Virus record (IMG/VR): IMGVR_UViG_3300033463_000011
Span: 1-64,000 of that record
DNA from: a virus
Taxonomy: Duplodnaviria; Caudoviricetes
Length of the DNA: 64,000 nt
Reading direction: 5' to 3' (one strand)
Position 1 is the stretch's first letter, and each line of letters starts with the position of its first letter. This document shows positions 1,634 to 38,536 of the stretch, piece by piece. The notes beneath the pieces are model-generated. The model made no database searches, was not told the origin of the DNA, and saw only the letters and a program-made list of their open reading frames with translations. Made by a program: the position numbers and the translations under genes.

Positions 1634-1879
1634 ATGAGTAAGATATGTTTAAGAGATATTGCAGAGGGGCAGACAGGTTGGTTTTGTGACGATTGCGGTA
1701 AACGTATTTTAGGGGTTTCAGAAAATTTATTTAGCCGACCTCTTATTGATAAATGTCCACATTGCGGAGTAGTTTTTACTGATTATGAATTATGCAAAAC
1801 TCGCATTGATATGCACAATAGGCTTATAAGCGAATTTCCTGAATTAGCAATAGGGTTTAATAAGGAGAATAAAGAATGA
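1634..1879 (+). CDS. Zn-ribbon protein, paralog of 9384..9614
   Basis: Shared GVSENLFSRPLIDKCPHC. Confidence 0.8.
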   Translation: MSKICLRDIAEGQTGWFCDDCGKRILGVSENLFSRPLIDKCPHCGVVFTDYELCKTRIDMHNRLISEFPELAIGFNKENKE

Positions 1880-2025
1880 CAAATGAAGTCGCTTTTTACG
1901 GTGGTCATATTATCTGTATGCAAGGCTCAATCAAGGCTGAAAATTTAGATTTTATACTAGATTTGATTGATGAATATATCGAATTAGCTGAGATGCAAGA
2001 TATGAGAGGTGAGAATAAGAAATGA
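1876..2025 (+). CDS. Hypothetical 49 aa, paralog of 33767..33898
   Basis: MTNEVAFYGGHIICMQGSIKAENLDFILDLIDEYIELAEMQDMRGENKK. Confidence 0.75.
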   Translation: MTNEVAFYGGHIICMQGSIKAENLDFILDLIDEYIELAEMQDMRGENKK

Positions 2026-13851: not shown

Positions 13852-14184
13852 ATGGATAGACTACATAATTGTCCTAATTGTGGTGGATACCTTAATGACC
13901 AGGGTAGATGTGAATTTTGCGGTTCCAAGGTTTATGATCTCTGTGATATTGATTTAGCACTTGATCCTACAAAATCCCCTAAGAAGACATATCTGCGAAT
14001 AAAGACAGATAAGGGAATTTGGACTGTTCCAGTATTTGCCGATACTATGAGTGTATCTACCCATACCTCTTATTTAGATTCTACGTTAGGGTTGACTCCA
14101 ACTTATGTATCTTGCCCAGCATACTCAGAAATTGACTTACATTTCTATGCTGTGGGTGAGGGCGTTTTCGAATCGGAGGAATAA
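13852..14184 (+). CDS. Double Zn-ribbon protein
   Basis: CPNCGG...CEFCGS. Confidence 0.75.
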   Translation: MDRLHNCPNCGGYLNDQGRCEFCGSKVYDLCDIDLALDPTKSPKKTYLRIKTDKGIWTVPVFADTMSVSTHTSYLDSTLGLTPTYVSCPAYSEIDLHFYAVGEGVFESEE

Positions 14185-14476
14185 TATGGAAGAACTTATC
14201 CACGCATTAGAGCAGGGCAAGCCTGACTATGACGGTGAAGACGTTAATTATGATGTTGCCACAATTAATAGTGCTATATTTTACTTAAAACAACTTCAAA
14301 AAATTAAGGGTTATCTTGAATTGGCTGTTAAAGATAGTGATAAATTTAAGCAGCAGTATGCTGAGATAGCTGAACATACGCATAATTTCAATGATTTATA
14401 CAAATCCAAAATATTTGAGGGTATGGCAGAAGCTTATTCAAATATTCTTGAAAGGTATTTTAAGGAGTAAAAATTT

Positions 14477-14764
14477 ATGTTATCGCAGGACGACGCAAAA
14501 TTAAGGCTCGAAAAGAATATCCGTAACTATAGATGGTTGCAGGAAAATAAAGTGACTGAGGATCTATCTGGGTTAGATGATAGGATTGACGCCTGTCTGA
14601 TCGCTGTAGATGCTATTGGTAAGTTGCAGAAAATCCAGAAGATAGTAGATGAATTTAATTCAACCCGTGATAGCTCGCCTATGGTAGAAAGCGCCTATGC
14701 AGAGTATACCAAAATCGAAAAAGTGGAATGTTTTGATCAGATATTGGATCTTTTTAAGGAGTAA
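14477..14764 (+). CDS. Hypothetical flanked by 13-bp direct repeat
   Basis: TTTTAAGGAGTAA at 14458 and 14752. Confidence 0.7.
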   Translation: MLSQDDAKLRLEKNIRNYRWLQENKVTEDLSGLDDRIDACLIAVDAIGKLQKIQKIVDEFNSTRDSSPMVESAYAEYTKIEKVECFDQILDLFKE

Positions 14765-30499: not shown

Positions 30500-31225
30500 A
30501 TGGGTTCAAAAGTCAAAAGTCTTGTGAACGACTATAAAGTTCTCTTAAGAAGTGTTCCAGCATTAATCACAACTATTTTTGTAGTCGGTACAATTTTGAT
30601 GAATTTGTCAGCCGCAAAAATCATTTTCAATGCTTGGAATGTAGCAGTCACTGGTGGTTTCATTTTAAGTTGGTTACCCTTCTTGTGCATGGATACTGTA
30701 GCAAAGAGGTTTGGTGCGAGAGCAGCTATCTTGCTTAACATCTTATCTGCTGCAGGAAATCTTTTTGCTGTATTATTCCTTGCATTAGTGGCAGTCATCC
30801 CTACTACAGAACCTTATACTGAATTCAATTACATCTTTGGTGCAGTTTGGTTCATTTGTTTAAGCAGCACAGTTGCATTCGTAGTATCTGGTGTAATCAA
30901 TAGTTTAGTAAATGTCGCTGTAGGTAAACTTTTCAAAGGTAAAACAAATATCATTGAATTTTTTACAAGAAGCGCGCTTTCTACATTTGTAGGTCAGGCA
31001 TTAGATAACTTCATTTTTATCGCTGGTGTTTATGTAGTATTTGCTCCGATATTCTGGGGAACAGAACCTCTTCCTATTCTTACATGTGTAGGTACTGCAA
31101 TCTTAGGTGGTCTTATGGAACTCCTATGCGAAGTACTTCTTACACCTCTTGGATACAAAATTGTTAAGGGATGGGAAAAGAACAATGTAGGCGAAGAATA
31201 TCTTAAACTTCATCCTCAGAAGTAA
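30500..31225 (+). CDS. yhhQ: Queuosine precursor transporter (YhhQ/VUT family)
   Basis: About 6 TM helices; FL..D....FG, RS..ST.VGQ.LD; que context. Confidence 0.85.
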   Translation: MGSKVKSLVNDYKVLLRSVPALITTIFVVGTILMNLSAAKIIFNAWNVAVTGGFILSWLPFLCMDTVAKRFGARAAILLNILSAAGNLFAVLFLALVAVIPTTEPYTEFNYIFGAVWFICLSSTVAFVVSGVINSLVNVAVGKLFKGKTNIIEFFTRSALSTFVGQALDNFIFIAGVYVVFAPIFWGTEPLPILTCVGTAILGGLMELLCEVLLTPLGYKIVKGWEKNNVGEEYLKLHPQK

Positions 31226-31233
31226 TTAAATTA

Positions 31234-31348
31234 GAGAGTTTTGTATCAACCTTGAAAGCCTCTCATTAAACAAAAATAACAGGTTACACAATAACACAAA
31301 TCGTTATATAGAGTGTAGCCAACAATTATGGTTACACTCTATCTTTTT
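31234..31348 (+). ncRNA. Putative preQ1-I-like riboswitch (transcriptional) with terminator
   Basis: P1 GAGAG/CUCUC; AACCU/AGGUU pseudoknot; terminator 31308-31348. Confidence 0.65.
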
Positions 31349-31362
31349 ATAAGGAGAAAAAT

Positions 31363-31863
31363 ATGTCCAGAAACGCAGAAGAATTACAAGGAGTAACATT
31401 ACTCGGAAATCAGAACACAAAGTACAAGTATGAATACGACCCAAGTATTCTTGAAACATTCGTAAATAAGAATCCCGATAACGATTACGTTATCACATTT
31501 GATGGATATGAAGGCACAAGTTTGTGTCCTAAGACAGGTCAGCCTGATTTCTTCAAAATGGTTATCAATTATATTGCTAACGAAAAATGTGTAGAATCAA
31601 AGAGTCTTAAGTTGTATCTGTTCAGTTTCCGTAGTACAGGTGAATTTCATGAAGACGTTGTTAACAGAATTGGTAAAGACCTTGTCAAGTTGTTAGACCC
31701 TAAATACCTCGAAGTAAGAGGTATATTCTCTCCAAGAGGTGGCATTGCTATCTATCCGTTCTTCAACTATGTAGGAGATACAAAGTACGAAAGCTTTGCA
31801 ATGCAGCGAAAGCTTGATACAATGCGTGATGCTTGTAACAGAACAGTAAAATATGATATGTAA
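31363..31863 (+). CDS. queF: NADPH-dependent preQ0 reductase, type I
   Basis: [26 protein letters not shown]. Confidence 0.95.
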
Positions 31864-31873
31864 GGAGAATCAT

Positions 31874-32572
31874 ATGAAAAAAGCATTAGTATTAAGTAGC
31901 GGAGGACTTGATTCCTCAGTGTGTGTTGCAAAAGCTGTAAAAGAGTTCGGAGCTGAAAATGTAGTGACTGCAAGTATATACTATGGACAGGCACACAAAA
32001 AGGAACTCTTAGCTGCTAAGAATATCGCAGAATACTACAATGTAAAGCATATTGAACGAGATATTTCTAGTGTTATGCAAGATGCAAAGAATGTATGCTC
32101 GCTTATGGAAGGTTCTTCTATTGAGATGAATGATAAGAGTTATGCGGAGCAAATTGCAGAAAACGGGAAACCTAACACAGAAGTGCCTATGAGAAACGGT
32201 CTATTTCTCATGGTTGCTGCATCTATTGCGATGAGTATTTTTCCTAATGAGGAAGTGGCAGTGATTTATGGGGCTCATAGTGATGACGCTGCTGGGTCTG
32301 CATATCCTGATTGCTCACCCGAATTTGCAGATAGAATAGATGAAGCAATTCAGATAGGTAGTAGAAACAAAGTTCATCTTGAGCGGCCACTCATAGATAT
32401 GACAAAGGCAGAAGTAGTTAAGCTTGGTCTTGAATTAGGTGTTGACTTTAGTAAGACTTGGTCGTGTTATCATGGCAGAGATAGAGCTTGCAAGGTATGC
32501 GGAACTTGCCGAGATAGACTTGCAGCATTTAAAGCTAATGGTGTAAAAGACCCTATTGAATACGAGGATTAA
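31874..32572 (+). CDS. queC: 7-cyano-7-deazaguanine synthase
   Basis: SGGLDS PP-loop, YGQ.H, VP.RN, YPDC, TWSCY...C..C..C. Confidence 0.95.
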   Translation: MKKALVLSSGGLDSSVCVAKAVKEFGAENVVTASIYYGQAHKKELLAAKNIAEYYNVKHIERDISSVMQDAKNVCSLMEGSSIEMNDKSYAEQIAENGKPNTEVPMRNGLFLMVAASIAMSIFPNEEVAVIYGAHSDDAAGSAYPDCSPEFADRIDEAIQIGSRNKVHLERPLIDMTKAEVVKLGLELGVDFSKTWSCYHGRDRACKVCGTCRDRLAAFKANGVKDPIEYED

Positions 32573-32574
32573 CA

Positions 32575-33018
32575 ATGAAAATAACTGAAGTAGAAACATT
32601 CGTAACATTTGAAGCCGCTCATAGATTATATGCAGTAGACACATATACTCAAGAATGCCGAAAGAATCTCCACGGTCATAGTTACGGAGTGAGGGTAGTT
32701 GCTAGTAGAAAATCAATGAATTCTGCAGGTATGGTTGTGGACTTTAAATTGCTTAAAGAAGTAGTTCATGATGTAATTGAAGTACCTTATGACCATTCTT
32801 GCATTCTTAAAGCAGATGACCCTCTTGCTGAGCCGATTAAGCTTAATTGTGAGAAGGTTCATATTGTAAATGAAAATCCTACTGCAGAATGGATGGCTAA
32901 GATATTCTTTGAAATGATTGAAGATGCACTCAAGAAGAAAGACCCTGAACTCTTCTTATCTTCTGTATCCGTTAGAGAAACTGAAAAGAATATTGCTACT
33001 GTAAGGAGAACCGAATGA
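32575..33018 (+). CDS. queD: 6-carboxytetrahydropterin synthase
   Basis: FEAAH, C..LHGHSY, DH, NPTAE, ET. Confidence 0.92.
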   Translation: MKITEVETFVTFEAAHRLYAVDTYTQECRKNLHGHSYGVRVVASRKSMNSAGMVVDFKLLKEVVHDVIEVPYDHSCILKADDPLAEPIKLNCEKVHIVNENPTAEWMAKIFFEMIEDALKKKDPELFLSSVSVRETEKNIATVRRTE

Positions 33019-33764
33019 TGAATACTATTCCTATTGTAGAAATATTTGGGCCTACGTTGCAAGGCGAGGGACCTAATGTAGGTGCAAGATGTATCTTTGT
33101 TCGTGTTAAGGGGTGTGATTTCAAATGTGAATGGTGCGATTCTAAATTCACTTGGAATAACAATAGTAGCGAAAAAATAGATTATGAACCTGAAACTCTT
33201 GCACAGTTACTTATTCATAAATGTCTTACTGATAATTGTAAACATATAGTACTTACAGGAGGTAATCCTTGTTTATATGATTTCACTTATGTATTATTCA
33301 AATTAAAAGCATTTGGTGTAAAAGTAGATATAGAGACACAAGGTTCATTAATTCCTGATTGGCTAACTATGATTGATACAATAGTATTTAGTCCTAAAGT
33401 TCCTTCGAGCGGCATGATAGATACCTATGATACTATTACAGAATTTATTAATAATAATGATCAAAGTAATCATACTATTGCTATTAAGATTCCAGTATTT
33501 AATGCAGATGATATAACATTTGCAAGAAACTATGCAAAGTTTGTAAACGAATTTACAAATAAAAGAGATAACAATATCAATCTTAGATTGTATCTTAGCG
33601 TAGGTAATTCAGATGTAAATACTAAAGAATCTATTCGCGATAGAGTTTTATCTGATTATGAAGAATTGCTAAATAGAATTAATCAATTCCCCAGCGATTT
33701 TGAAAATGTTTACATATTGCCTCAAATCCATACGTTAGTCTGGGGCAATAAGCAAGGAGTTTAA
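33015..33764 (+). CDS. queE: 7-carboxy-7-deazaguanine synthase (radical SAM)
   Basis: EIFG.TLQGEG, CxxxCxxCD, TGGNP, PQ.H. Confidence 0.95.
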   Translation: MMNTIPIVEIFGPTLQGEGPNVGARCIFVRVKGCDFKCEWCDSKFTWNNNSSEKIDYEPETLAQLLIHKCLTDNCKHIVLTGGNPCLYDFTYVLFKLKAFGVKVDIETQGSLIPDWLTMIDTIVFSPKVPSSGMIDTYDTITEFINNNDQSNHTIAIKIPVFNADDITFARNYAKFVNEFTNKRDNNINLRLYLSVGNSDVNTKESIRDRVLSDYEELLNRINQFPSDFENVYILPQIHTLVWGNKQGV

Positions 33765-33766
33765 TT

Positions 33767-33898
33767 ATGCAATTCTACGGAGGTCAGATTATATGTATGC
33801 AAGGTGAAATGAAAATTGATAATCTTAATTTCATATTAGACCTAATAGATGAATATATTGAACTTCTTGAATCTGTAGAAAATAAGCAAGGAGTATAA
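33767..33898 (+). CDS. 43-aa cassette gene inside the que operon
   Basis: Paralog of 1876..2025; flanked by 14-bp direct repeat. Confidence 0.75.
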   Translation: MQFYGGQIICMQGEMKIDNLNFILDLIDEYIELLESVENKQGV

Positions 33899-33900
33899 CA

Positions 33901-34029
33901 ATGGGATATAAGAAATTAGATATACCTAAGGTAGAAGAAGCAGTTAAGAATCTTCTTATAGCATTAGGCGAAGATGTAGAAAGAGAAGGATTAAAAGAAA
34001 CTCCACGAAGAGTAGCAAAGTATTGGTAA
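33901..34029 (+). pseudogene. folE: 5' fragment (42 aa) of a second folE
   Basis: LLIALGEDVEREGLKETPRRVAKYW* is a FolE N-terminus. Confidence 0.85.
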
Positions 34030-34048: not shown

Positions 34049-34633
34049 ATGAATACTCAAATTGATGCGGAAAAGATAAAGAAACTTACTAGAGAATTTT
34101 TGCTTGCCTTAGGAGATGACCCAGATAGAGAGGGGCTTAAAAAGACCCCTGATAGAGTGTCTAGAATGTGTTTAGAAATCTTCGAAGGTATGAATTATTC
34201 TAATCAGGATATTGCAGATAAGTTTAACACTTGTTTTGAAGATGTTGAAACCGGAGATCTTGTAGTAGAAAGCAATATCCCCATTCACTCATTTTGCGAG
34301 CATCATATTATGCTTATGTACGATATGTCTGTAGCAATTGGGTACTTACCAAAAGGAAAAGTTATTGGCTTAAGTAAGCTTGCTCGTATTGCAGATATGG
34401 TAGGTAAGCGATTGCAGCTACAAGAACGAATTGGATCCGATATTGCCGATATTCTTCAGGAAGTTCTTGGGACTTCGGATATTATTGTTGTAATTGAGGG
34501 AAAACATGGCTGCATGACTGCAAGAGGTATAAAGGCAAGAGAAGCAGTTACTCGAACAGCTACTTTAAGAGGTCGATTTGAATCAGATTCAGATCTTCGT
34601 TCTGAATTTTATGCTTTAATTCATAAACCTTAA
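34049..34633 (+). CDS. folE: GTP cyclohydrolase I
   Basis: REGL..TP.RV, CEHH, GLSKL, QER, H.CM..RG. Confidence 0.95.
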   Translation: MNTQIDAEKIKKLTREFLLALGDDPDREGLKKTPDRVSRMCLEIFEGMNYSNQDIADKFNTCFEDVETGDLVVESNIPIHSFCEHHIMLMYDMSVAIGYLPKGKVIGLSKLARIADMVGKRLQLQERIGSDIADILQEVLGTSDIIVVIEGKHGCMTARGIKAREAVTRTATLRGRFESDSDLRSEFYALIHKP

Positions 34634-34664
34634 ATATATCCAATCATATATGCGAGGTGATGAT

Positions 34665-35984
34665 ATGATCCCACTTAACTCTGCTCAAACAGCTGAACTT
34701 GCTGAGTTCTTAGGTCACGATCCATCTATTGATGGAGAATGGTCAATTACTCGTTCGCTTAATAACGGTCCGTGTATATACGCAGTTAATTCAAAGGGTA
34801 CTCTAGTAGTGAGATTAACTTGTATAGACCGTGCAGGTAGGATTCAAAAGCCTAGGTTATCTTCTATACGAGAGTACCCAGATCATTATTTGTTTTGCAA
34901 TTTAAATAATAAAGATATTAGAATGCATCGACTAATGGCCTATGTGTGGTTAGATGATTACGATGAAAATCTAACAGTTAACCATAAAGACGGAAACAAG
35001 CATAATAATGATTACCATAATTTAGAAATGCTGTCAGTCCATGATAACTGCATGCATTATCATCATTCTGATGAAATGTTACAAAAACGTAATCGGGATT
35101 ATGCGTATCATGGAACTCGGATCAAGGGCAGGATTCATATAACTAATGGAGTTGAATCCAAGATGATATACGAATCTGATGGAATTCCAGAAGGATGGTG
35201 GAGAGGTCGTTCAGATAGCGTGAAAAAGAAGTTGTCTGAATCATGCAAAGGGCATTCACCTTCTAATGCAGGTAAGTATTCTATAACTAACGGAATTGCA
35301 GTAAGATATATTTCTCCTGATGAAACTCTCCCTCAAGGATGGTCGAGAGGAGGGATTAACATGTCTGAATCTAAAAAGCAAAATATACGAGATAAAATGA
35401 CTGGAAAGGTGTTTGTTCATAGAGGTAAAGAAAATAAACGTGTATATTCTTATGAATTAGCTTCTTATTTATCCGAAGGTTGGGAATTAGGCATGTATGC
35501 AAAGCAATGGGATAGAACAGATACAGAATATACTGAAGAACGAAGAGAACATATGCGAAAAATAATGACTGGAAGTGGAAACCCTATGTATGGAAAGCAC
35601 TTATCAGAAGAAACAAAAGCTAAGTTGAGTGCTGCAAATAGAAATAGAGTGGTTTCTGCGGAGATAAGAAATAAAATAAGCGAATCTAAAAAAGGATATC
35701 ATCACACAGAAGAAGCTAAACAGAAGATGCGAGATGCTATGAAAGGGCGTGCAGCTAATAACACGGGATATATCTGGATAACTAATGGAAAAGATAATAA
35801 ACAAATTCCTGAAAGTGAATTGAATAAATATCCCGATTATAGGAAAGGCATATCTCGAGAGAAAGTCATACGAGTATTTGTCAACGATGGATATATTAAT
35901 CATAAGATCCCTATTTATGAACTTGATAGCTGGCTATCTCAAGGATATGTTCGAGGGTTATTGAAACATTCGAAAAATTCTTAA
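34665..35984 (+). CDS. HNH homing endonuclease with NUMOD3 and ITNG repeats
   Basis: HRLMA...VNHKDGNKHNN...NLE; NPMYGKHLSEETKAKLS. Confidence 0.85.
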   Translation: MIPLNSAQTAELAEFLGHDPSIDGEWSITRSLNNGPCIYAVNSKGTLVVRLTCIDRAGRIQKPRLSSIREYPDHYLFCNLNNKDIRMHRLMAYVWLDDYDENLTVNHKDGNKHNNDYHNLEMLSVHDNCMHYHHSDEMLQKRNRDYAYHGTRIKGRIHITNGVESKMIYESDGIPEGWWRGRSDSVKKKLSESCKGHSPSNAGKYSITNGIAVRYISPDETLPQGWSRGGINMSESKKQNIRDKMTGKVFVHRGKENKRVYSYELASYLSEGWELGMYAKQWDRTDTEYTEERREHMRKIMTGSGNPMYGKHLSEETKAKLSAANRNRVVSAEIRNKISESKKGYHHTEEAKQKMRDAMKGRAANNTGYIWITNGKDNKQIPESELNKYPDYRKGISREKVIRVFVNDGYINHKIPIYELDSWLSQGYVRGLLKHSKNS

Positions 35985-36113
35985 AATTTAAGAAAAGAAA
36001 TAGAAGGAAAAAGTACAAGAATTGCATCTATCTTCAATTAGGTAACATGAATCGTTATAATAGGTAGAGGAATTTATTTTCTACCTATTTTGTACTTAAG
36101 GAGACCTCGTTAA

Positions 36114-37592
36114 ATGGATAATATTTTTTACTGCTCAGCACTTGAGTTAGGTAATAAAGTAAACAAAGGAGATATTTCTCCTACAGAAATACTAGACGCA
36201 TATGAAAAGCGTATTGAAAAGATTAATCCTAAAATCAATGCTATCGTATATACGAAGTTTGACGAAGCTAGAGAACGAGCACTTGAGTTAGAAGCTCGAT
36301 TAGCAAAAGGCGAATATTGTGGGCCTTTCGCAGGAGTTCCAGTAGGATTAAAAGATTTCTTACCCAGTAAGAAGGGGTGGATATCTACTCACGGAGGTGT
36401 AGCCAGTTTAACTACTATTGATGAGTATGATTCAGAGATATGCAAAGCAATGGAGAAGTTAGGAGCTATTGTAATTGGCAAAACAAATTCACCTGCTTTT
36501 GGATTTAGAGGAACAACAGATAATAAGTTATACGGACCTACATCTACTCCATTTAACATCGAACATAATTCTGGTGGAAGTTCGGGAGGTAGTGCTTCGG
36601 CAGTAGCTGCAGGTATGATGGCAATTGCTGAAGGAGGCGATGCAGGTGGTTCAATCAGAATTCCTGCTGCTTGGTGCGGATGTTTTGGTCACAAACCTTC
36701 TGCTGGATTAGTTCCTAGTGTATGTAGACCCGATGCCTGGACCGCTACTCATCCTTATTGTTGCGGAGGTCCTATTACTAGAACAATAGACGATGCTGCA
36801 TTAGTATTAGCTTCTATGATAAAGTATGATCCGAGAGATCCGATTAGTGTAATGACTCCGCCTAGTTTGATTCAGAATATCTTAGATACTCATGGGATAG
36901 TTAAGAATAGAAAATATAAAATAGCCTATACTATGAATTTTGGTACACTCTTTCCGTATCCAGAACTTCAGATTGCCGAAGCTATAGAGAAAGTAATTAA
37001 TATTTTAGAAGAAAAAGGCAATACTATAAGTAAAGCTAATTTCAAATTCAATTATTCCCGTAAAGAAATTGAAGAAGCTTGGTTGCGTGGTATCAGTATT
37101 GATTCATCTATTGATAATGCTATTGCAAAAGATAATGGATTTGATTTAATCGGATACCATTCAGATGAATTACCTGAAGCATTCATTAAGTGGGATAAGC
37201 TCGCGTTTGAATCTACGATGATGGATTATAGAAAATTTCATGAAATCAGAACAGATATCTTAGATGCACATCTTAGAGTATTTGAAGATTGTGATATTAT
37301 CATTGCTCCAGTTGCTGGATGCATGCCTCCAAAAAATTCTGATAATTATGATACTCAAGGACCCGACCATATTGGAGACATAGAAGTTGATCCTTTAATC
37401 GGATTTTCATACACCTATCTTGAAAATATGATAGGAACTCCTGCAGCATCAGTACCTATTGGACTATCAAAAGATAATTTACCTATTGGGTTACAAATAA
37501 TTGGTAAACGATATCATGATGACGAAGTATTCGCAATCGCAAGACAGATAGAAATGATGATACCTTGGGATTATACTAAAATTCAGATTTAA
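36114..37592 (+). CDS. Amidase-signature family protein
   Basis: P.AGVP..LKD, GGSSGGSA, DAGGSIRIPA, LPIGLQ. Confidence 0.92.
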   Translation: MDNIFYCSALELGNKVNKGDISPTEILDAYEKRIEKINPKINAIVYTKFDEARERALELEARLAKGEYCGPFAGVPVGLKDFLPSKKGWISTHGGVASLTTIDEYDSEICKAMEKLGAIVIGKTNSPAFGFRGTTDNKLYGPTSTPFNIEHNSGGSSGGSASAVAAGMMAIAEGGDAGGSIRIPAAWCGCFGHKPSAGLVPSVCRPDAWTATHPYCCGGPITRTIDDAALVLASMIKYDPRDPISVMTPPSLIQNILDTHGIVKNRKYKIAYTMNFGTLFPYPELQIAEAIEKVINILEEKGNTISKANFKFNYSRKEIEEAWLRGISIDSSIDNAIAKDNGFDLIGYHSDELPEAFIKWDKLAFESTMMDYRKFHEIRTDILDAHLRVFEDCDIIIAPVAGCMPPKNSDNYDTQGPDHIGDIEVDPLIGFSYTYLENMIGTPAASVPIGLSKDNLPIGLQIIGKRYHDDEVFAIARQIEMMIPWDYTKIQI

Positions 37593-37609: not shown

Positions 37610-38287
37610 ATGGAAGAACACTGGAGACCTGTTAAAGATTACGAAGGTTTGTATGAAGTAAGCGATTCAGGTAACGTTAGAAGCATAGATAGATATGAAA
37701 CATTTGTGAATAAGGAATCTACATATCCAGTAGTAAGATTTCGAAAAGGCACAAATTTACATATAACATATGAAGGAAAATCTCCTCGTGTCCAACTGTC
37801 TAAGTATCATAAACTCAAAAATGTACCTATATGCAACTTAGTTGCAGAAGCATTCATCCCGAATCCAAATGGTTATACATGTGTAAATCATAAAGATGGC
37901 AATAAGTTAAATAACTGTAAAGAAAATTTAGAATGGGCACCATTTTACTCTGTTGGCAAGTTTGAAAAAGAAAGCATAATCTCCGAAGAGTGGAGACCCA
38001 TTCCTGATTATGAAGACCTTTATGAAGTTTCAAATACTGGAAAAGTTAGGAGCATTCCACGAAAAGTAGTAAGAACTCGTAACAGAAATAACAGAAGTTT
38101 TGATGATTTAGCTAAATATAGCGCAAGAGAATTAAAACCGTGTAGGCATAATCAGAAAACTGGATTTGCAGTATACCATCTGCATAGAAGATACAAACCC
38201 GGATTTTATGGTCAAACGGATACATATCACGTCATCGAAGATTTGATTCAACTAGCGTTTCCAGAGTTGCATTCATGGGAGGATTAA
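37610..38287 (+). CDS. NUMOD4-HNH-NUMOD4 endonuclease-like protein
   Basis: Two WRP..YE.LYEVS..G.VRS; VNHKDGNKLNN..NLEW. Confidence 0.85.
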   Translation: MEEHWRPVKDYEGLYEVSDSGNVRSIDRYETFVNKESTYPVVRFRKGTNLHITYEGKSPRVQLSKYHKLKNVPICNLVAEAFIPNPNGYTCVNHKDGNKLNNCKENLEWAPFYSVGKFEKESIISEEWRPIPDYEDLYEVSNTGKVRSIPRKVVRTRNRNNRSFDDLAKYSARELKPCRHNQKTGFAVYHLHRRYKPGFYGQTDTYHVIEDLIQLAFPELHSWED

Positions 38288-38536
38288 ATGTTGGAAAATA
38301 TCATAATTGCAGTATTAAGCATAACGCTTGGAATAATTATAGCGAATATATTTAATCATGTAGAAATAAGTAACCTCAAAACTCAGCTGTTTAATTCTGA
38401 AGAAGAAAATGACAAACTGATGAAAGAAAACAAAGGGTTAAGAGAACACAACGCCAAACTATATGATCACTTGAAGGAAATACATGAATTACATGATGTT
38501 GCATTAAGCAACATACCTGATTTTGAGGAGTGGTAA
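38288..38536 (+). CDS. Small TM plus coiled-coil protein
   Basis: Hydrophobic N-terminus. Confidence 0.6.
   Translation: MLENIIIAVLSITLGIIIANIFNHVEISNLKTQLFNSEEENDKLMKENKGLREHNAKLYDHLKEIHELHDVALSNIPDFEEW

Follow-up and report, generated by a model that had tools for sequence, protein, structure and literature searches.

Duplication of a gene junction at the insertion of a small gene between queE and folE in a phage genome

Introduction

The boundary-sequence version of the modular theory of phage evolution is said to go back to Susskind and Botstein. Its short conserved boundary ("linker") sequences are summarised in PMC3029335 (refs 21, 22). In the mycobacteriophage Island3, gene 68 is absent from the sister phage, and its C-terminal 18 residues, together with their DNA, repeat those of the upstream gene; the gain was read as recombination at a short repeat near the gene boundary (Pope et al. 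2011, PMC3029335). In T4-type phages, ORFan cassettes have been described that lie between two PeSLs, each of about 100 bp with a sigma-70-like early promoter and a stem-loop terminator, where a sister phage has one PeSL, and PeSL mini-circles have been described as well (Arbiol et al. 2010, PMC2839356). Two further bodies of work concern this locus, one on homing, co-conversion and the free-standing endonucleases of T4-type phages (PMC2988022, PMC2790892) and one on phage que clusters of the kind found here, which lead to modified DNA bases (PMC6884629, PMC10516641).

Here we analyse a 64,000-nucleotide stretch of phage DNA (the window), the first 64 kb of a 200,233-bp IMG/VR virus record whose completeness estimate is complete. 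Between queE and the remains of a folE gene it carries a 43-aa ORF which, like Island3 gene 68, is an extra small gene whose C-terminal residues and DNA repeat the upstream gene. The Island3 repeat is about 50 bp long, the inserted gene has no homologs and polarity was left open, whereas in the present case the repeat measures 23 nt, polarity can be read from many outgroups, and the relatives that make up the insert's broad family end differently. As with the PeSL cassettes, a single ORF lies between two short junction copies and one copy is present in phages without the ORF, but the repeated element is a 23-nt translational junction inside an operon. The junction also resembles the boundary linkers of the modular theory in being an exchange point at a gene border that holds different cargos in related phages. 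It is nevertheless no neutral linker, since it is the conserved coding end of QueE, which doubles as the Shine-Dalgarno sequence (SD) of the next gene, and its second copy was made by the insertion.

Results

Genes of the que region are, in order, a Vut_1 transporter (30500-31225), queF (31363-31863), queC (31853-32572), queD (32575-33018) and queE (33015-33764, plus strand), the last coding for a 7-carboxy-7-deazaguanine synthase with Pfam Radical_SAM/Fer4_12 matches. They are followed on the plus strand by the 43-aa ORF (33767-33898), a 42-codon 5' stub of a GTP-cyclohydrolase-I gene, folE (33901-34029, Pfam GTP_cyclohydroI), a complete foreign folE allele, folE2 (34049-34633, Pfam E value 1.6e-60), an adjoining free-standing gene of the HNH/NUMOD3 homing-endonuclease type (34650-35984), and a decayed, frameshifted 3' remnant of the resident folE that was recognized by blastn and translation (about 35987-36046, ending ..KVQELHLSSIR*). 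An amidase gene (36114-37592) lies 3' of the remnant. Directly after the remnant and before the amidase gene is a terminator-like hairpin with 13 pairs and a T run (36059-36089), and the que transcription unit probably ends there. A megablast search of the operon against GenBank phages returned no match.

The operon is a mosaic gene by gene. QueE of the window is 92% identical to QueE of a related locus, L003, and QueD (32575-33018 versus L003:3639-4004) only 26%; the window QueD is apparently nearer to that of L040 (L040:3062-3499), judging by eye from N-terminal translations. At 32989, close to where queD meets queE, DNA identity between the window and L003 steps up from about 70% to 88.6%. 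In L003, queF and queC are separated by an inserted 110-aa ORF (L003:2604-2936), the equivalents of which in L050, L051 and the P0016 contig match Pfam NUMOD4. This ORF is homologous at ~76% nucleotide identity to positions 37985-38290 of the window, downstream of the amidase gene, where a NUMOD4 gene was called. The slot that related endonuclease genes take within the operon thus varies among relatives.

The first-pass annotation had described a 43-aa ORF between queE and the folE stub, flanked by two copies of a 14-mer and ending in NKQGV* as QueE does. The ORF is present where it was placed, the 14-mer AATAAGCAAGGAGT occurs exactly at 33747 and 33881, and the common ending of QueE and the ORF is seen in the translations. 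The repeat is in fact longer than first noted: the 14-mer forms the core of a 23-nt repeat (33747-33769 and 33881-33903) whose copies are 134 nt apart and identical at 20 of 23 positions (87%). Each copy contains the queE codons N-K-Q-G-V with an AAGGAG SD inside them, a TAA stop, a 2-nt spacer and an ATG. The left copy (plus strand) thereby comprises the queE tail with its SD, the stop, the spacer and the ATG used by the 43-aa ORF. The right copy (plus strand) is a second queE 3' end, with 14-mer, stop and spacer, joined to the folE ATG, and supplies the SD of the folE stub. Between the copies are 111 nt, or 37 codons (33770-33880, plus strand), that form the core of a mini-ORF family with the pattern FYGG...LDLIDEYIEL. 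The 43-aa ORF is therefore composed of the junction ATG, the inserted core and the duplicated queE tail; it starts 2 nt after the queE stop, stops 2 nt before the ATG of the stub and uses the duplicated SD.

At a tolerance of one mismatch, no further copy of the 14-mer occurs in the window, where 0.06 matches are expected and 0 out of 100 shuffled sequences reach two, and no further exact copy occurs on either strand of the 200,233-bp genome. A chance or convergent likeness of two strong ribosome-binding regions, with no insertion at all, could appeal to the AAGGAG and TAA present in both copies, which are common in tightly packed phage genes. We give this reading practically no weight, because two matches are observed against the 0.06 expected, the match extends to 20 of 23 nt, and the right copy lines up with genuine queE ends in relatives. 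Junction repeats are also rare: exact repeats of at least 12 nt were found at only 9 out of 328 heuristically called genes genome-wide, most of them (six) in the two linker arrays that the genome contains. The 43-aa ORF lies between queE and the stub on five contigs, of which the two shown derive from different samples, and an assembly chimera is unlikely. The phage is present in samples ERZ27257207 and SRR10393135.

The three junction-repeat genes outside the arrays are the queE/folE case and genes at 81944-82165 and 14477-14764, both with exact junction repeats of 13-14 nt. At 81944-82165, outside the window, the copy of the upstream gene's tail (YFKGE codons) is non-coding and follows the gene's stop. 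The gene at 14477-14764, which has an FKE* tail in common with the gene upstream (14105-14470), was considered as a second footprint and set aside, as the two are apparently tandem paralogs by eye from their translations.

Relatives of the locus were gathered in three independent ways, by QueE peptide patterns, by a degenerate QueE-end pattern and by exact look-ups of QueE homologs. Among the 15 loci whose QueE shares 47% identity or more with that of the window, 11 have queE next to folE, spaced by -9 to +16 nt, and a single queE tail. Relatives of the kind proposed for comparison in the first-pass annotation, with queE directly before folE and one copy of the 14-mer, were thus found, and the abutting arrangement is that of L047, L040 and nine further loci. 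In L047 (QueE 89% identical), queE ends with the 14-mer followed by A-TAA-TT-ATG and runs directly into folE, the first 42 codons of which match the stub in the window. The blastn alignment of the window to L047 consists of two pieces, 33018-33769 and 33881-34026, with the 111 nt as a gap. The left junction copy is identical to the single L047 junction at 22 of 23 positions, and the L047 ranges of the two pieces overlap by exactly this 23-nt junction (L047:1968-1990), the pattern left by an insertion that duplicates its target. In L040 (QueE 64% identical), the alignment to the stub begins at 33881, inside L040's own queE tail, and the right copy is collinear with the L047 and L040 junctions alike. 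Positions 33880-33900 are identical to the queE end of L050 (21 of 21), and the 14-mer is kept in queE down to about 50% protein identity. The 111 nt are absent from the relatives with a direct queE-folE junction.

The empty sites and the overlap in L047 confirm that a single gene was inserted at the queE stop/SD junction and that the junction was duplicated, as had been proposed, and they refute a chance likeness of the two copies. A QueE tree places the window together with L003 and L047 in a well-supported six-member clade, to which L049, L050 and L040 also belong. All states of the slot, namely a direct junction, a phosphoribosyltransferase-like (PRTase-like) gene and the mini-ORF, occur in this clade, except for a 51-aa ORF found in L039. 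The direct queE-folE junction is the deep state. Because the direct junction, the PRTase-like gene and the mini-ORF all fall within one clade, the slot of the window's immediate ancestor is uncertain and may have carried the PRTase-like gene.

The duplicated tail belongs to queE. The ending WGNKQGV is found in 93 out of 120 QueE homologs, a set assembled without reference to the C-terminus, and close variants are found in 119 out of 120. None of the 73 other members of the mini-ORF family (11 close homologs and 62 others) ends in NKQGV, and homologs with this ending regardless of context, the pattern that the first-pass annotation had set against an insertion, were therefore not seen. Together with the empty sites above and the divergence of the core given below, these comparisons demonstrate an insertion, a duplicated junction, a queE origin of the tail and a foreign origin of the core.

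Two other cargos occur in the same slot. A PRTase-like gene of 125-126 aa (PHROG 8995) is found in L003, L037 and L049-L052 (L003:4753-5130, L049:1631-2008 and L050:2402-2782). It ends in PWEA* or PWEEL*, has its own GGGAGG SD and came without duplication of the queE tail, which fits a duplication needed only for an insert that lacks an SD. The third cargo is a 51-aa hydrophobic (membrane) ORF in L039 (L039:1463-1618), also with no duplicated tail. Judged from these sequences, the queE-folE junction is a recurrent insertion point.

The exchange of cargos raises a rather unlikely alternative, in which the mini-ORF arrived already flanked by queE-type junctions, on a one-junction mini-circle like those of the PeSLs or in another que operon, and then integrated or spread by homologous recombination within the conserved 23-nt junction. 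The junction would on this view be an adaptor used again and again, with no duplication de novo at this site. In its favor, the slot holds three cargos in relatives, the left junction agrees at every position up to the ATG with that of L049, which bears the PRTase-like gene, and the right copy matches an L050-type queE end at 21 of 21 positions. The conservation of the 14-mer to about 50% QueE identity could let it serve as a recombination site, and linker arrays exist in the genome. However, the mini-ORF was found beside a queE tail in no other genome, the family endings (0 out of 73 with NKQGV) give no sign of such a history, and the other cargos of the slot have no duplicated tail. Moreover, some first copy with flanking junctions would still have to have arisen de novo.

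Downstream of the insertion, the resident folE is in two parts. The stub (33901-34029) is 81-85% identical in nucleotide sequence to the 5' ends of folE in L003, L047, L049 and L050, and the homology stops at 34026, before the stop codon. Homology to folE of this type resumes at 35990-36046 with the last codons, frameshifted, at 77-80% blastn identity to the 3' ends in L047, L049 and L050. The allele in between, folE2, has 77.5% nucleotide identity to folE of L040 and only 36% amino acid identity to the L003-type folE. The endonuclease-like gene matches NUMOD3 (E value 4.8e-16), weakly HNH_3, and PHROG families of HNH and homing endonucleases; no close relatives of it were found in IMG/VR. Resident folE was thus split and functionally replaced by a foreign allele accompanied by a homing-endonuclease-like gene.

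This arrangement, in which an HNH gene adjoins the alternative allele and the resident one has been destroyed, resembles the free-standing homing endonucleases of T4-type phages with co-conversion of flanking markers (Edgell et al. 2010, PMC2988022; Wilson and Edgell 2009, PMC2790892). It differs in that the alleles have only 36-44% protein identity and that a 5' stub and a 3' remnant stand in place of a clean conversion. The split looks like homing, after a putative cleavage, between alleles too diverged to be converted cleanly. The same episode could conceivably have captured the mini-ORF as a by-product of break repair, through a template switch about 260 nt upstream of the break in folE. 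Resident folE is indeed split around folE2 and the adjacent endonuclease gene, and the two rearrangements lie near each other and are found jointly on every contig with the 43-aa ORF. We regard this as improbable all the same: the two events have no joint in common, the slot was hit independently in lineages without the endonuclease gene, and no relative was found with only one of the changes.

A word-based protein search with the 43-aa ORF recovered only the ORF itself; an exhaustive profile search revealed its family, which comprises 11 close homologs and 63 cluster representatives at an E value of at most 1e-3 (one of them already among the 11), with lengths of 33-109 aa. The core is conserved (FYGG, I, QG and LD.ILDLIDEYIEL), and the N- and C-terminal tails are free. 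Pfam and PHROG searches with the que copy found nothing, and a feature search gave no usable match. An AlphaFold model consists of a short beta-hairpin and one long helix (pLDDT 81), and a fold search with it returned only single-helix look-alikes, which carry no meaning. One family member, P0165 (109 aa), has the core behind an N-terminal domain that by eye looks like an HTH type, and another, P0138, has the core followed by a Zn-ribbon-like C..C tail. The fused cores hint that the mini-ORF may be a small helical module for partner binding or oligomerisation.

A paralogous mini-ORF lies in an early small-gene array of the window (1876-2025, plus strand); the homology between the two, noted earlier, amounts to 72% identity over 36 aa (E value 8e-15). 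A Pfam DHHA1 match of the array copy fell below threshold (E value 0.003) and was disregarded. The array copy ends in DMRGENKK*, and its reported likeness to local Zn-ribbon genes holds, as five of these end in C..CG[AK][DE]MR[GK]..* with near-identical DNA. A 31-nt repeat (94% identical; 1862-1892 and 2726-2756), made up of the linker AAGGAGAATAAAGAATG and the first five codons (MTNE), is common to the array mini-ORF and an apparently unrelated Zn-ribbon gene. At its N-terminus, too, the array copy has a tail that seems to derive from a junction; the que copy has no such tail.

Across eight contexts of the mini-ORF, the flanking repeats measure 0, 8, 9, 14, 15 or 16 nt. The 14/23-nt repeat of the que copy is unique in its genome. 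In L046, a 16-mer found only at both flanks within the 2.7-kb locus is non-coding. In L004, the repeat is a 15-mer and the tail GEKK is also that of the upstream neighbor; this 15-mer is a generic linker with four copies in 6 kb. Weaker repeats of 8-11 nt flank the array copy of the window (tail ENKK versus ENKE) and the copy in L043 (NDK versus DDK), and L066, L070 and L071 have none. The expectation that C-termini of homologs would track their upstream neighbors is thus borne out in four of the eight contexts, exactly in two; in a fifth, the flanking repeat is non-coding. Within arrays such tracking carries no information, since array linkers are generic. The footprints recur, yet they are no fixed property of the mini-ORF. 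A scan of IMG/VR for an empty site of the 16-mer that flanks the L046 copy gave 13 unrelated chance matches.

Both ends of the 111-nt insert carry an inverted repeat with 8 of 9 positions matching (33773-33781 and 33872-33880), which was noticed post hoc. Its quality is equalled by about 0.7-1% of random 111-nt pieces or shuffles (p about 0.01); it is probably due to chance and is the sole feature that fits a MITE-like element.

A dedicated mobile micro-cassette of integron, transposon or MITE type, one that targets gene junctions and leaves target-site duplications, would be in keeping with this inverted repeat and with the locally unique flanking repeats in two contexts (14/23 nt in the window and 16 nt in L046), besides the 15-nt repeat in L004. 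The L004 repeat, though, is the generic array linker, and flanking repeats range from 0 to 23 nt and are absent from L066, L070 and L071. Searches of the complete 200-kb genome found no tyrosine recombinase (PF00589, with positive controls), no serine recombinase and no RecT, nor was any attC-like structure apparent; the genome does encode a RecA/UvsX-like recombinase. Because tyrosine and serine recombinases are missing and three of the eight family contexts have no flanking repeat, a machine dedicated to cassettes is unlikely, and we hold such an element to be highly improbable.

The locus resembles integron cassettes, which are inserted in series, in having a promoterless single-ORF unit with a repeated core sequence on both sides. 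It departs from them in the absence of an IntI-type recombinase (PF00589) and of an attC-like site, in inverted repeats that are only short and imperfect, and in the variable length of the repeat. Unlike a transposon or MITE, it shows no target duplication of fixed length, and a serine recombinase is absent, the enzyme searches having covered recombinase families. Morons, in contrast, bring their own promoter and terminator and are expressed independently of their neighbors, whereas the 43-aa ORF sits tightly packed in the operon with a duplicated SD. No terminator-like site was found within the insert or at its borders, the nearest terminator-like hairpins being at 31308 and 36059. Promoter-like sites in the region are at background level (26 found versus 20.9 expected), with none at the insert borders. 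The lack of a promoter-like or terminator-like site at the borders and of a tyrosine or serine recombinase argues against membership in the integron, PeSL or moron types.

The que copy differs from every known copy, including the one at 1876, with pS of at least 0.78 (saturated) and pN of about 0.15. Saturated pS with low pN marks the core as a long-diverged member of the family under purifying selection and not a recent internal duplicate, and by the same token the copy at 1876-2025 is not a recent donor. No donor of the 111-nt core was found. The homolog in L071 starts with nearly the same 15 nt (MQFYGG) as the que copy, and the V-E-N that precedes KQGV in the que copy has a counterpart V-E-N at the aligned position in P0011; from these likenesses the foreign segment would run from its own start codon to about codon 38.

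Discussion

We infer the recombination route and the selective filter as follows. The likely explanation, reading from the aligned sequences, is that the 111-nt core of a foreign mini-ORF was inserted into an originally direct queE-folE junction by illegitimate or microhomology-level recombination, or by template switching between phage DNA molecules, and that a junction-duplicating product was then retained by selection. Both joints would fall at matches of 3-6 nt, the left one at the ATG and the right one at AAT(AAG) in the queE tail; these microhomologies are deduced from homologs that are only 60-75% identical. On the recipient the two joints would overlap by 23 nt, and the junction (tail with SD, stop, spacer and ATG) is accordingly present twice. 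The newcomer reads in frame into the second queE tail and ends in NKQGV*.

Selection would enter because the SD of folE (AAGGAG) lies inside the last codons of queE, so that only junction-duplicating products would be expected to survive. For an insert that brings no SD, QueE would stay intact and both the newcomer and folE would have a ribosome-binding site only if the junction were duplicated. The demands of these overlapping signals account better for the duplication than would a special mode of insertion that leaves it as a hallmark.

One observation speaks against microhomology, as the mini-ORF and the PRTase-like gene both begin exactly at the junction ATG. Random breakage would predict a looser coincidence, and the common start hints that generic SD-stop-ATG motifs may have guided the recombination. 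The right copy is also nearer to the L050-type queE end (21 of 21) than to the left copy of the window (20 of 23), and the left junction is identical up to the ATG to that of L049, while the right copy resembles L050- and L047-type ends. The two junction copies may thus derive from two parental genomes and not from a duplication in situ.

An early array with the mini-ORF offers a different kind of gain or loss. The contigs L004 and L005 are 99.3-99.7% identical where they align and differ (L004:3116-4593 versus L005) by a five-gene block that lies between two copies of a 58-aa gene. An indel of five genes bounded by linkers was considered here and rejected in favor of recombination between the two 58-aa gene copies. 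The pair suggests gain or loss through gene-length repeats in the same early array as the mini-ORF.

The first-pass annotation had also proposed that insertion of single genes at such junctions builds linker arrays. Linker arrays exist in the genome of the window, and a connection of junction-duplicating insertion with them is plausible. A bolder version, for which we see little likelihood, is that the mini-ORF is a micro-cassette mobilised in trans that moves as an exact ORF, from the start codon to the penultimate codons, into start-codon junctions and makes long junction duplications, and that repeated moves of this sort generate the uniform linker arrays of this phage group. If that were true, the terminal inverted repeat (8 of 9) and the locally unique flanking repeats in L046 and the window would be its hallmarks.

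The queE/folE case is a very clean yet ordinary phage gene gain, a phenomenon already described in mycobacteriophages and T4-type phages. What sets it apart is the unusually complete set of controls, with many empty sites, an unambiguous owner of the repeat (QueE) and relatives of the insert that have other tails. Annotators should take neither the NKQGV tail of the 43-aa ORF nor the 42-aa "folE" for a functional feature, as both are footprints of rearrangement. The case alone does not show how arrays arise, but it gives a concrete, testable starting point for the view that a junction might be multiplied into a linker array by insertions in series. More generally, where an operon is translationally coupled, an insertion into it will tend to leave the junction duplicated, because the last codons of the upstream gene are the ribosome-binding site of the downstream one.
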